Positions 34,158 through 36,293 of a stretch of 64,000 nucleotides of DNA are shown here, in pieces (position 1 is the first letter of the stretch; the number at the start of each line of letters is the position of its first letter). Location of the stretch: NCBI GenBank assembly GCA_021772655.1, contig JAJFLM010000335.1, forward strand, positions 34,941 through 98,940, written 5' to 3'. Source of the DNA: Deltaproteobacteria bacterium (GTDB lineage: Bacteria > UBA10199 > 2-02-FULL-50-16 > JAJFLM01). The notes under the pieces are model-generated. The model was not told where the DNA came from. It did no database searches and saw nothing but the letters and a program-made list of their open reading frames with translations. The position numbers and the translations under genes were made by a program.

Positions 34158-34349
34158 TTAGAGAAGATATTTGGTGAAATTTAATAAATCAATTGCTTTA
34201 ACCAACCGTTTAGGAACAGAAGTATTACATACATTACATTTATTTCCTGCATCTGCAATTAAAGTCCTCCATTTTACTTCTTTTGTACAGTTATGTTTTA
34301 AATAGGTATACCCTTGAAGAGTTGTTAATAGAGACCATTGATCTTTCAT
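34158..34349 (-). CDS. LL-tail zinc-knuckle mini-protein, paralog (last of the array)
   Basis: 63 aa. KHNC...CNVCN...VPKRLVKAIDLLNFTKYLL-stop. Confidence 0.65.
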   Translation of the reverse strand: MKDQWSLLTTLQGYTYLKHNCTKEVKWRTLIADAGNKCNVCNTSVPKRLVKAIDLLNFTKYLL

Positions 34350-34410
34350 AATAGATTCTTGGTAAACTGCATTAGCTTTCTGGTGTGTTTTCTATTACCC
34401 AACCGTTCAT
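34346..34410 (-). pseudogene. deletion remnant of an LL-tail paralog
   Basis: ATGA-coupled start at 34410 gives MNGWVIENTPES-stop. 24 nt further on, AAG AAT CTA TTA TGA (KNLL-stop) is fused to the next gene's ATG. The two pieces are out of frame. Confidence 0.5.
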
Positions 34411-34598
34411 AATAACCTCCTTACTATATTAAGTAATTTTTTCTGTTTCAATAGCTTTTCTGGTATTTTTTTATTACAATAGATACACTTAGTTTGATCT
34501 ACCCCCATTACTATAGTAGGATAGTTTATAATATCTTTACAATAATGTCTAATAATTATAACTTCAAAAGAGAAGGATTCTAGATAGAAGCTTTTCAT
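34407..34598 (-). CDS. LL-tail zinc-knuckle mini-protein, paralog
   Basis: 63 aa. RHYC...CIYCN...IPEKLLKQKKLLNIVRRLL-stop. ATGA overlap. Confidence 0.65.
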   Translation of the reverse strand: MKSFYLESFSFEVIIIRHYCKDIINYPTIVMGVDQTKCIYCNKKIPEKLLKQKKLLNIVRRLL

Positions 34599-34783
34599 AA
34601 TAGATTTTTTGTATAATTTATTATATCTCTAAGTTTTACAAGAGATTTGGGTATTTCATTATTACATAAATTACAAGAATTAGAATATATAAAACATAAA
34701 TAATTAGGGTCTAATTTAGTGCAATAATGAGTAATAATCCATATTTTATCTCTTTCAATATATAAAATATCCCAGTTACTCAT
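34595..34783 (-). CDS. LL-tail zinc-knuckle mini-protein, paralog
   Basis: 62 aa. THYC...CNLCN...IPKSLVKLRDIINYTKNLL-stop. ATGA overlaps on both sides. Confidence 0.65.
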   Translation of the reverse strand: MSNWDILYIERDKIWIITHYCTKLDPNYLCFIYSNSCNLCNNEIPKSLVKLRDIINYTKNLL

Positions 34784-34959
34784 AATAAGCTCTTTAAAAA
34801 TCTAATCATTTTCCTTATCTTTATTAGATTGCTGGGGGCAGGTTTACTACAACGAGGACACTCACTATTCTGCCAGAAAAGTATATATTCTATTTTAGTT
34901 CTTCCAGTTACACAGCTATGAATAATTTGACCATCTCTAGTAATATCCCATTGTTTCAT
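34780..34959 (-). CDS. LL-tail zinc-knuckle mini-protein, paralog (59 aa, below the ORF-track cutoff)
   Basis: Hand translation MKQWDITRDGQIIHSCVTGRTKIEYILFWQNSECPRCSKPAPSNLIKIRKMIRFLKSLL. ATGA overlaps on both sides. Confidence 0.6.
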   Translation of the reverse strand: MKQWDITRDGQIIHSCVTGRTKIEYILFWQNSECPRCSKPAPSNLIKIRKMIRFLKSLL

Positions 34960-35144
34960 AATAATCCCTCGGTGAATTTAGCAAGATAGAAAGCTGCTTC
35001 TAATCTCTTTGGCATTCTACTATGGCAGATATTACAAACAATAATACCCCAAAATTTACCATTGTGGCACTCGTGGTAAAGAGCAGGTCGAGCACCTGGT
35101 CCCCGGTCTTGGATATCCCAGATGCAGATTGTATTATGTTTCAT
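34956..35144 (-). CDS. LL-tail zinc-knuckle mini-protein, paralog
   Basis: 62 aa. YHEC...CNICH...MPKRLEAAFYLAKFTEGLL-stop. Confidence 0.65.
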   Translation of the reverse strand: MKHNTICIWDIQDRGPGARPALYHECHNGKFWGIIVCNICHSRMPKRLEAAFYLAKFTEGLL

Positions 35145-35353
35145 AGGAGTTTTAATATTGCGTTTAATACACGACGTTTTTTCAATAGCTCAAGAGAAGC
35201 TCGGTTTCCACAAGGACAAGATCGATCCCCAGGGATGGCATCACAGTCTTTACAGTAGGTTATTATAAAATATTTGCGACCGAAGAAGGATTCTTTAAGA
35301 GGTAAAATATCTATTTGAAGATCCCCTGCGGGTGAATTAGGTTTCGAAGTCAT
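35141..35353 (-). CDS. LL-tail zinc-knuckle mini-protein, paralog
   Basis: 70 aa. YCKDC...CPCG...LELLKKRRVLNAILKLL-stop. Confidence 0.65.
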   Translation of the reverse strand: MTSKPNSPAGDLQIDILPLKESFFGRKYFIITYCKDCDAIPGDRSCPCGNRASLELLKKRRVLNAILKLL

Positions 35354-35541
35354 AGCAATCCTCTAACTGCAAGCATTAATTTAAAAACCTTATACATCTT
35401 AGGAGGAACAGACTTATCACAACTTACACATTTACCATAACTATTAGGCCACGACATAACATGACTATTATGACAAGAAACGTGCTGTAAATCTACAAAA
35501 TCAGTATCCTCATATACAACCCATTTCCATTCTTCCTTCAT
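35350..35541 (-). CDS. LL-tail zinc-knuckle mini-protein, paralog
   Basis: 63 aa. QHVSC...CVSCD...VPPKMYKVFKLMLAVRGLL-stop. Confidence 0.65.
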   Translation of the reverse strand: MKEEWKWVVYEDTDFVDLQHVSCHNSHVMSWPNSYGKCVSCDKSVPPKMYKVFKLMLAVRGLL

Positions 35542-35786
35542 AATAATTCTTCGGTGAAAGTAATTAGCTTAGCGGTTTTAGAGATTTTCTTTCGTAGTAC
35601 AGGATCCCTGAATTTCTCTAATATTTCTATAGGAATTTCTTTTCCACAATTTTGACATACTCTCCTATAAGGAAGTTCAGCTTGCCAGACTCTAGTATTA
35701 CATTTTACATGTCGAAGCTCTAATCTTCCTTTAGAATCTACATACATAGCAAAATAATTAGCTACGTCAAGAGGGAAGGAAGTCAT
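35538..35786 (-). CDS. LL-tail zinc-knuckle mini-protein, paralog
   Basis: 82 aa. RHVKC...CQNCG...IPIEILEKF...KLITFTEELL-stop. Confidence 0.65.
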   Translation of the reverse strand: MTSFPLDVANYFAMYVDSKGRLELRHVKCNTRVWQAELPYRRVCQNCGKEIPIEILEKFRDPVLRKKISKTAKLITFTEELL

Positions 35787-36046
35787 AATAAATCCTCAAC
35801 AAATATCATTAGATTAGCAACCTTACGAACTTGTGGTATAAGCTGTAAACAACGATCACAAAGAAATTCTTTACCATAAAAAGGACGAGAAGGATCTTCA
35901 GTGATCTTTCGCTTTTTCTTCGTCATGCATTTAAGATGGCAGAGATTTCCGTTTGATGCTATCCAAACCTCTCCGGTTTCTTTATCCTCAAAACCCTTAA
36001 GCCCTATAGATAGCTTCTCAAGCGTGACCTTCATATCCTGTGCCAT
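35783..36046 (-). CDS. LL-tail zinc-knuckle mini-protein, paralog
   Basis: CHLKC...CDRCL..IPQVRKVANLMIFVEDLL-stop. The ATG at 36046 (MAQDMKV...) is preferred over the TTG at 36067 used by the ORF track. Confidence 0.6.
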   Translation of the reverse strand: MAQDMKVTLEKLSIGLKGFEDKETGEVWIASNGNLCHLKCMTKKKRKITEDPSRPFYGKEFLCDRCLQLIPQVRKVANLMIFVEDLL

Positions 36047-36293
36047 GAGTGTCTTCCCATATATCAATAGGTTTAAATATAATCATACACCTATGACAAT
36101 AATAATGCCCTTTTATATAATCAAATACTACAGGACCTACTTCATAATATTCAGCTTCATGAGATTGTTTTCTGTCACAAATATGTAAAAGAGTTTCTAT
36201 TTCTACTTCAAAATCCCTAATGAAAAAACAATCTTTATCCAATCGTTTTTTAAGATCTGCCAGAAATGTAAAAGGTGCGATTCTTACTAACAA
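36018..36293 (-). CDS. first gene of the leftward array: divergent zinc-knuckle protein without the LL tail
   Basis: TTG start with GGAGG 5 nt upstream. LHIC...CHRC are present, but the C-terminus (..IDIWEDTHGTGYEGHA) differs from the family. Confidence 0.5.
   Translation of the reverse strand: MLVRIAPFTFLADLKKRLDKDCFFIRDFEVEIETLLHICDRKQSHEAEYYEVGPVVFDYIKGHYYCHRCMIIFKPIDIWEDTHGTGYEGHA

Follow-up and report, generated by a model that had tools for sequence, protein, structure and literature searches.

The closest described counterparts of the genes reported here are the zinc-binding DUF4379 and CapR-type modules of phage homing endonucleases. CapR, the phage-inducible chromosomal island-like element (PLE) repressor, is a nuclease-free derivative of phage homing endonucleases that represses the capsid operon via DNA binding, and it thus provides a precedent for derivatives of this kind that act through DNA (PMC8096241). 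The conserved CapR-type cysteines are required for DNA binding, and in CapR and the ICP1 endonucleases they follow the pattern CxxC-24/26-CxC (PMC8096241). Here we describe a tandem array of small minus-strand genes at positions 34158-36293 of a 64,000-nucleotide stretch of phage DNA (contig JAJFLM010000335.1, deposited as Deltaproteobacteria bacterium; hereafter the window), nine of which are intact and encode zinc-finger mini-proteins ending in Leu-Leu (LL). Together with three outlying copies, the array makes up an expansion to 12 intact copies, specific to this genome, of a family of phage zinc-finger mini-proteins (∼60 residues) that has not been described before.

The window proteins share with DUF4379 (PF14311) and the CapR-homology domain (PF21817) a β-strand that closes with His/Cys-x-Cys and is joined through a loop to a C(P)xxC knuckle, and both kinds of module are found in phages rich in homing endonucleases. 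In contrast to DUF4379/CapR proteins, however, the window proteins are stand-alone modules of ∼60 residues, with neither a nuclease domain nor tandem repeats within the protein; they add a C-terminal basic amphipathic helix, are encoded in multi-gene arrays, and differ from CapR in the order and spacing of the ligands. The CapR spacing (CxxC, 24-26 residues, CxC) was absent from the family, which instead has H-x-C, roughly 8-40 residues, and CxxC.

Other small phage proteins provide further points of comparison. P2 Ogr, P4 Delta, Mu Com and proteins of the lambda/plasmid TraR-DksA type are phage proteins of 60-75 residues that have a four-ligand zinc site and bind RNA polymerase or RNA. The window family resembles them in its small size and four-ligand site, and TraR/DksA gave the only recurrent weak matches (E 0.016-0.04), but there is no significant sequence match, the ligand spacing is different, these proteins are encoded by single-copy genes and not by diverged arrays, and the helices of TraR/DksA precede the finger. 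In the T4-type IPI-III loci, small and highly diversified phage genes are clustered that have a single short constant motif at one terminus in common, and thus follow the same logic of a constant handle on a variable body; there, however, the motif is N-terminal, targets the protein to the capsid and is cut off by the prohead protease, and the proteins lack a zinc site.

Results

Twelve intact copies share a zinc-ligand architecture and a terminal Leu-Leu

Nine of the 12 intact family copies in the window lie in the array; the others are an orphan copy and a pair, x1 and x2, which were detected when a hidden Markov model (HMM) of the family was run on all window open reading frames (ORFs) (Table 1). 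All 12 end in LL. Besides these there is one deletion remnant and one marginal leader gene. An initial annotation, made from the letters of the window, had listed the array, the remnant and the orphan, all of which we find, and had overlooked x1 and x2 (10018-10511). Its nine consecutive minus-strand ORFs of 59-87 residues with LL ends agree with the ORFs and translations, the 59-residue gene that it added to the ORF track (c4) is present, and the deletion remnant is real. Its divergent first gene, the leader gene, has the H-x-C...C-x-x-C core in register (LLHIC...YCHRC), but reaches no more than 6 bits with the family HMM, in the zinc core alone, and has neither the helix nor LL.

Table 1. 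Positions of the family copies, the remnant and the leader gene in the window.
Feature	Position	Strand	Length (residues)	C-terminus	Remarks
leader gene	36018..36293	-	91		marginal, degenerate member; TTG start at 36293, GGAGG at 36303-36299 (five bases upstream)
c9	35783..36046	-	87	...FVEDLL	from ATG 36046; 29-nt overlap with leader gene
c8	35538..35786	-	82	...FTEELL	helix carries 19-residue insertion; ATGA junction
c7	35350..35541	-	63	...AVRGLL	ATGA junction
c6	35141..35353	-	70	...AILKLL	variant ligands CxxC...CxC, no His; ATGA junction
c5	34956..35144	-	62	...FTEGLL	ATGA junction
c4	34780..34959	-	59	...FLKSLL	shortest copy
c3	34595..34783	-	62	...YTKNLL	ATGA junction
c2	34407..34598	-	63	...IVRRLL	AGGAGG in last codons is the Shine-Dalgarno sequence of the next start
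remnant	34346..34410	-			internally deleted copy; MNGWVIENTPES and stop (34372-34410), then MQFTKNLL and stop (34346-34372); ATGA-coupled on both sides
c1	34158..34349	-	63	...FTKYLL	last gene of array; LL and stop CTT CTC TAA; no downstream overlap
orphan copy	40780..41004	+	74	...YTQRLL	CxC replaces CxxC; helix 4 residues shorter
x1	10018..10239	-	73	...LRDLL	ATGA-coupled to NUMOD4 homing-endonuclease-like gene (9362-10021)
x2	10236..10511	-	91	...TANLL	extra Cys-rich insert; ATGA-coupled to x1

Each protein opens with a short strand, often W-x-I, and continues with a β-hairpin that closes on His-x(1-2)-Cys. A loop of variable length (roughly 8-40 residues, most commonly 15-20) leads from there to the CxxC knuckle, which is followed by a Pro and by a basic amphipathic helix; in the window copies this helix runs to the end of the protein. 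The invariant columns of alignment A1 are M1, two Cys and the terminal LL, and the His, the third Cys, the Pro and one Lys are conserved at 90% or more; across alignments A1 and A3, CxxC does not vary, and the His and Cys reach 90% conservation or more. The copies form a genuine family of paralogues marked by a zinc-ligand signature. Eight of the 12 intact LL-ending copies have an isoelectric point of 8.4-9.9, and the net charge of the last 17 residues ranges from 0 to +5.

Outside these positions the copies have diverged widely, with 21-38% identity to the first copy in A1 and 20-38% identity between paralogues across A1 and A3. The earlier description of a diverged N-terminus and a fixed tail was overstated: among the nine copies whose C-terminal spacing is identical, pairs are on average 31% identical over the last 26 residues vs 26% over the N-terminal part, and conservation in the C-terminal part is limited to the two CxxC cysteines, the Pro, three helix positions and LL. 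Repeats at the DNA level within the array are short and at best 60-79% identical. Thus the copies are old, and their tails have not been kept alike by recent conversion; a recent duplication or gene conversion was dropped as an explanation because no DNA repeats exceed 79% identity.

Only 14 of the 247 six-frame ORFs of at least 50 residues in the window end in LL, and 12 of these 14 are family members, which excludes a chance origin of LL. Half of the intact copies (6 of 12) end in TTA TTA TGA, and the remaining ATGA-overlapping copies use CTA TTA, CTT TTA, CTC CTA or TTG CTA before TGA. The two copies without a downstream overlap also end in LL, encoded by CTT CTC (TAA) in c1 and TTG CTG (TAG) in the orphan. 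Because synonymous codons are used and LL is kept in uncoupled copies, we conclude, in agreement with the initial annotation, that LL is conserved at the protein level. The possibility that the ATGA overlap forces LL was dropped, since the overlap constrains one base only.

The array is translationally coupled

ATGA overlaps occur at eight gene junctions of the array and at the junction between the remnant and the last gene, and the codons that precede LL are often purine-rich and Shine-Dalgarno-like (GAGGA, AGAGGA, GAGGGA, AGGAGG). These overlaps bear out the proposal that the array is one coupled operon, as do the TTG start and the GGAGG upstream of it for the proposed beginning of that operon. 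No terminator-like hairpin was found on the minus strand inside the array, and the first one downstream (33082..33107, minus strand; 10-bp stem with 8 G-C pairs, followed by a T-run) therefore probably marks the end of the transcription unit. A relatively G+C-rich interval of 584 nt (33574-34157, minus strand), with no convincing ORF, separates the last array gene from the gene that follows. It folds better than 100 of 100 shuffled sequences (z = −3.4) and had no match in Rfam; it may represent a structured RNA or else a long untranslated region, 3′ or 5′.

The outlying copies have other settings. The pair x1/x2 is flanked by an AP2-like gene and the NUMOD4 homing-endonuclease-type gene, and several copies adjoin genes of the homing-endonuclease type. 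The orphan lies between tRNA-His and tRNA-Arg, directly after an HNH-type gene, and lacks a Shine-Dalgarno sequence. Its start is 7 nt past the 3′ end of tRNA-His (40773-40780), and the first 10 nt of tRNA-Arg (40995-41004) supply its LL and stop codons, so that processing by RNase P would remove the stop codon; the orphan may be a relic.

Related arrays in other phages differ in their C-termini

We searched 1.84 billion representative proteins with an HMM profile built from the window copies only (E ≤ 1e-3). Apart from the window's own copies, the profile matched six small proteins (E 7.5e-6 to 8.6e-4) and seven long ones with repeated zinc modules. Inspection of the contigs behind the small matches showed tandem arrays of the family in at least two other uncultivated phage lineages, and an adjacent pair on a fourth, short contig (L010). 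In one lineage, represented by the related phage contigs L002, L003 and L004 (up to 85 kb), each contig has 20-22 members, located within 10-20 kb on both strands and linked via short overlaps; in the other (L006-L008), at least 5-6 consecutive members occupy 1.5-3.8 kb. A protein of 148 residues from an ENA contig (P0015) is a natural in-frame fusion of two family units, the second of which also occurs as a separate 69-residue protein (P0025), and all P0015 homologues aligned to just one half of the fusion. The fusion could mean that units act in pairs, or simply that a stop codon was lost.

All lineages conserve the zinc ligands as well as the Pro and the helix. The terminus, in contrast, differs by lineage and is uniform within each genome, being LL-COOH in the window and LLN(E/G)x or LK(Y/H/N)G elsewhere. 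Members of the L002 lineage end in ...IPxHIxLQxKLL followed by NEN, NGI, YGK, W-rich tails or an entire additional domain of ∼60 residues. The LL of L002-L004 is thus internal, with 2-5 or more residues after it. Its aligned counterpart in the window copies is likewise an internal LL (Pro+9, Pro+10), and relative to the other lineages the window copies have one extra heptad (N-F/Y-T-x-x-L-L) and then stop. In the L006 lineage the end is ...hLNxLxxLK(Y/H/N)G. The search detected no other homologue ending in LL among the 1.84 billion proteins at this threshold. Hence, of the prediction that homologues would keep both the ligands and the LL terminus, the part concerning the zinc ligands holds, as does the helix, and the part concerning a free LL carboxylate does not.

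Some members of the L002 lineage (L002 5295-6904, L003 1284-3623, L004 1896-4969) have His in place of the first Cys (H-x-H...CxLC), and these same members bear the C-terminal extension domain of ∼60 residues. The gene right after the array encodes 128 residues in L004 (7002-7388) and 343 residues in L003 (6765-7796). This difference in size is an in-frame insertion of ∼215 residues with an AP2-like homing-endonuclease motif, and both ends of the host protein are kept.

Comparison of orthologue pairs between L002, L003 and L004 gave a median ratio of nonsynonymous to synonymous substitution rates (dN/dS) of 0.27-0.36 for the family vs 0.08-0.14 for other genes of the same loci, with family dN ∼3 times that of neighboring genes. 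These values indicate real genes that are under purifying selection and evolve fast.

The best match of most members lies within their own genome (8 of 12 in the window, 21 of 21 in L002, 6 of 6 in L006). When the tails were removed, the best match of c2 was an L006-lineage member, x1 and another L006 member were reciprocal best matches, and L006 member b was closest to c4. Three window copies in all have their nearest core relative in a lineage whose tail differs. If this pattern is real, given the low scores that sequences of ∼50 residues yield, tails would follow the genome and not the closest core relative.

The C-terminal helix is predicted to extend to the end of the protein

AlphaFold2 modeled c1 with a predicted local distance difference test (pLDDT) score of 79 (17 sequences) and c4 with a pLDDT of 89.9 and a predicted template modeling (pTM) score of 0.68 (28 sequences). 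The c4 model has strands at 4-6, 12-18 and 21-27, then the CxxC knuckle, and then a helix at 43-58 of the 59 residues, with pLDDT >90 in its last blocks, reaching the penultimate residue. Because the helix extends to residue 58 of 59, LL is modeled as a confident helix end and not as a free flexible peptide.

Three antiparallel strands followed by a C-terminal helix are also the order of the AP2 and lambda-integrase (Int) N-terminal DNA-binding domains, which account for seven of the 35 sub-threshold PDB matches obtained by Foldseek. Unlike the window family, these domains have no zinc site, and since the template modeling (TM) score to AP2-type folds is only ∼0.37, we regard this likeness as a lead and not a result.

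The zinc core resembles DUF4379/CapR modules at the profile level, and the family has no named match

Searches of Pfam, PHROG and NCBIfam with single members and with all 39 members gave no significant match, in agreement with the initial annotation, which had found no named family. Among sequence profiles of the PDB there was likewise no significant match (the best was the aIF2-beta zinc ribbon, E 0.19), nor did tblastn of one family member against phage genomes give one, and a search of the literature on DUF4379 or tandem zinc mini-proteins found no relevant description. To judge by these sequence searches, the family is undescribed in every library searched.

In the seven long matches to the window-only profile (E 3e-6 to 9e-4), the domains are DUF4379 ("probable treble clef zinc finger"), CapR-homology and DUF2726. 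We excised 36 repeat units from long DUF4379/CapR proteins and aligned them for profile comparison. The family aligned to these repeats by hhalign with 90% probability (E 1.6e-6) over only 36 columns, from the strand ending in His-Cys to CxxC. When an HMM of the DUF4379/CapR repeats was run against 1500 ORFs, the top 11 were family members from three lineages (best E 3e-4). The DUF4379-type ligand pattern, with His/Cys-x(1-2)-Cys at the end of a strand, a loop and C-x-x-C, is present in the family, as seen in A1, A3 and the AlphaFold2 models.

Several other candidates were rejected. The DksA/TraR finger has the form CxxC-x17-CxxC and is preceded by a coiled coil. Matches to this C4 zinc finger (PF01258, TIGR02419) reached at best E 0.042 (14.3 bits vs a cut-off of 24.9) and 0.016, involved one or two members at the CxxC only, and the helix of the family follows the finger. 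The ZAS anti-sigma motif is contiguous (H-x3-C-x2-C), whereas the His/Cys pair and CxxC of the family are separated by roughly 8-40 residues in A1 and A3. A sliding-clamp-binding motif (QL[SD]LF type; Q-L-x-L-(F/L) within a stretch lacking structure) was rejected because the window copies have no Gln there, Lys replacing it in eight of the nine array copies, and the segment is helical; in the L002 lineage, Q-x-x-L-L lies inside the helix.

The array belongs to a novel large phage

The window is part of a large phage genome of ∼120 kb with 28 tRNA genes, all on the plus strand (37212-50806), and its genes include a family-A DNA polymerase with a uracil-DNA-glycosylase-like domain, a DnaB-like helicase, a sigma-70-like protein and a terminase. 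In the protein database, the window proteins occur in one NCBI contig of 119,592 bp and one Logan contig. The array had no match among GenBank phages by megablast, the terminase and polymerase are only 23-27% identical (tblastn) to those of T5-like Proteus, Vibrio and other phages, an exact 40-mer did not occur in GTDB genomes, and scans of IMG/VR with the neighboring AAA ATPase and with the family motif found no matches. On this sequence evidence the phage is novel, and GenBank phages contain no close relative.

Several other genes of the window are of note. In the polymerase (1505-4123, minus strand), the uracil-DNA-glycosylase-superfamily domain is N-terminal to the 3′-5′ exonuclease domain. 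Also on the minus strand are genes for a sigma-70 region-2 protein of 408 residues (11573-12799), a DUF2201 metallopeptidase/VWA protein (13893-15179), a DUF932 protein (19723-20763) and an SPFH/Band-7 protein of 457 residues (23598-24971). An NAMPT gene and a cytidylyltransferase-like/NUDIX gene lie close together (16316-17647 and 18030-18935, minus strand; the cytidylyltransferase-like match is weak and sub-threshold). They resemble a nicotinamide adenine dinucleotide (NAD)-salvage pair of the type reported against NAD-depleting defense systems.

The tRNA cluster (plus strand) contains an RF-1-domain protein (39646-40101; an ArfB/peptidyl-tRNA-hydrolase-like ribosome rescue factor) and a Ro60 homologue (TROVE and vWA domains; 44871-46472), and Rfam detected no Y-RNA-like RNA at gathering thresholds. 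It also contains, 86 nt 3′ of the orphan copy, a phage-encoded AAA ATPase of the classic clade (41091-42197). The closest solved relatives of this ATPase are VCP-like ATPase, proteasomal Rpt2 and Cdc48; its 180-residue N-terminal region has no assignment.

Discussion

We tentatively favor, while giving it somewhat less than an even chance, a composite reading in which the array encodes fast-evolving basic zinc-finger mini-proteins that bind nucleic acids and in which LL is the last turn of the helix. The zinc core would be a stand-alone relative of the DUF4379/CapR-type DNA-binding modules of homing endonucleases, either descended from them or convergent on them. Because the proteins are basic, nucleic-acid binding, with DNA first, appears to be the most probable activity. 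Specificity would be set by the variable N-terminal strand and the loop between the knuckles, the constant helix would serve as a structural or oligomerization element with LL as its last hydrophobic turn, and the array as a whole may be a panel of binders for host take-over, regulation or DNA protection. Coupling offers a reason why coupled copies end alike, since the TGA stop shares its T and G with the next ATG, and a mutation that shifts the stop therefore destroys the next start.

A number of observations weigh against this composite reading. The similarity to DUF4379/CapR is confined to the zinc-ligand core, and no array copy (of 10) or family member (of 39) matched DUF4379 (PF14311; gathering score 24.5 bits) or PF21817 at E ≤ 1. 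Foldseek comparison of the two models with the PDB and BFVD gave no significant match (best E 0.7-3.4), and the AP2 and lambda-Int matches, with TM scores of 0.37-0.38 and E 4-9, fall below the thresholds of TM ≥ 0.5 or E ≤ 1e-3. Treble-clef and ribbon zinc modules mediate protein-protein contacts as well. A purely structural role for the helix leaves the invariance of LL, which in 12 copies equals that of the zinc ligands, and the uniform tails of each genome with no obvious explanation. Upstream of the array on the minus strand we found neither a sigma-70-type promoter nor a recurring motif (the phage encodes its own sigma factor), so that an "early" timing of the array is unproven.

The first alternative, to which we give a minor but appreciable chance, is that the proteins are inhibitors, each paralogue blocking a different host protein, such as a defense system or an enzyme, in the manner of anti-defense gene clusters, with the zinc site and helix acting only as a scaffold. 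Faster evolution than that of neighboring genes, arrays with many copies and remnants, the location of the array where an extended block of small unknown genes begins, and the putative counter-defense NAD-salvage pair elsewhere in the genome would all fit such a role. However, the members are for the most part strongly basic, while acidic mimics are frequent among the known inhibitors of DNA-binding defense proteins, and the family matches none in PHROG.

A second alternative, which we consider unlikely, is that variable zinc-finger heads bind targets and the constant LL-COOH helix docks to one partner, for which host ClpX, Lon or Prc, the VCP/Rpt-like AAA ATPase of the phage (41091-42197) or another hub are candidates. 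The SspB XB motif for ClpX and the poxvirus ankyrin-PRANC/F-box families are cases in which a constant C-terminal element plugs a variable domain into one machine, and the window proteins have the same combination of a variable binding domain and a constant C-terminal element. Those adaptors, however, dock by way of flexible peptides or distinct domains whose partners are known, while the tail in the window is modeled within a helix and is not conserved outside this phage.

Docking would account for an LL that is invariant in 12 copies of 20-38% identity, encoded by at least six codon pairs and kept without a downstream overlap, as well as for the uniform tail of each lineage. The core-only matches of c2, x1 and L006 member b, which cross lineages, also suggest that tails track the genome, although this argument relies on low scores from ∼50-residue sequences; with uniform tails per genome and core relatives in other lineages, a genome-specific partner may still exist. 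The orphan, moreover, lies 86 nt upstream of the classic-clade AAA ATPase. On the other hand, no homologue outside this phage has a free LL carboxylate, AlphaFold2 predicts a confident helix and not an exposed peptide, and no AAA gene is linked to the arrays of the other lineages within the 4-20 kb available.

The initial annotation had suggested that LL could be a free-carboxylate ligand, as in a docking peptide or degron (ssrA-like or SspB-XB-like). Such a motif would be expected at the free C-terminus of homologues, but these have an internal LL or LK(Y/H/N)G, and the idea therefore fails for the family as a whole. The helical model of the tail also speaks against it, and the uniform genome-specific tails speak for it. 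The docking-peptide or degron idea is thus weakened, and a PDZ, protease or hub ligand is pure conjecture. In a more specific form, which we think improbable, each genome tunes the C-termini of all its paralogues to one partner, and here the LL-COOH helix is recognized by the phage's own AAA unfoldase or by a host protease. If true, the array would be a combinatorial adaptor set that connects many targets to one machine, a bacterial-virus counterpart of the poxvirus ankyrin/F-box or SspB-type adaptors.

There is also a slim chance that the C-terminal basic amphipathic helix brings the zinc domains to the inner membrane. MinD and FtsA reach membranes via C-terminal amphipathic helices of similar length, and the last 17 residues of the 12 intact LL-ending copies are amphipathic, with a net charge of 0 to +5 and a hydrophobic end. 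In the model, however, the helix has a pLDDT >90 and forms part of a compact 59-residue fold (pTM 0.68), and in the L002 lineage it precedes polar tails or whole extra domains.

Lastly, it is highly improbable that LL is a by-product at the nucleotide level, in which TTATTATGA provides an A/T-rich spacer and an overlapping stop/start optimal for coupling and reads Leu-Leu-stop by accident, because, although TTA TTA TGA ends 6 of 12 copies, Shine-Dalgarno-like purine strings precede LL and the ATGA overlap locks the position of the stop, ATGA constrains the last codon at its third base alone, a spacer could be made of other A/T-rich codons while Leu is kept via CTC, CTA, TTG and CTT, and the uncoupled c1 (CTT CTC TAA) and orphan (TTG CTG TAG) end in LL as well.

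Stand-alone phage zinc-finger modules and lineage-specific expansions of small accessory genes are already known in kind; what is new is this family. If the composite reading of basic nucleic-acid binders is true, an unnamed protein family has been expanded separately by several unrelated uncultivated phages, from a few to ∼22 copies per genome. Phages seldom carry expansions this large, which tend to mark genes at the host interface. The proteins are easily testable, being ∼60 residues long with confident models and with a mutational handle in the zinc ligands, to which the window copies add the terminal Leu-Leu. They may form a natural library of compact zinc-finger binders, and they would offer a clean case in which to ask if a C-terminal tail that is uniform across a genome results from co-evolution with one partner.

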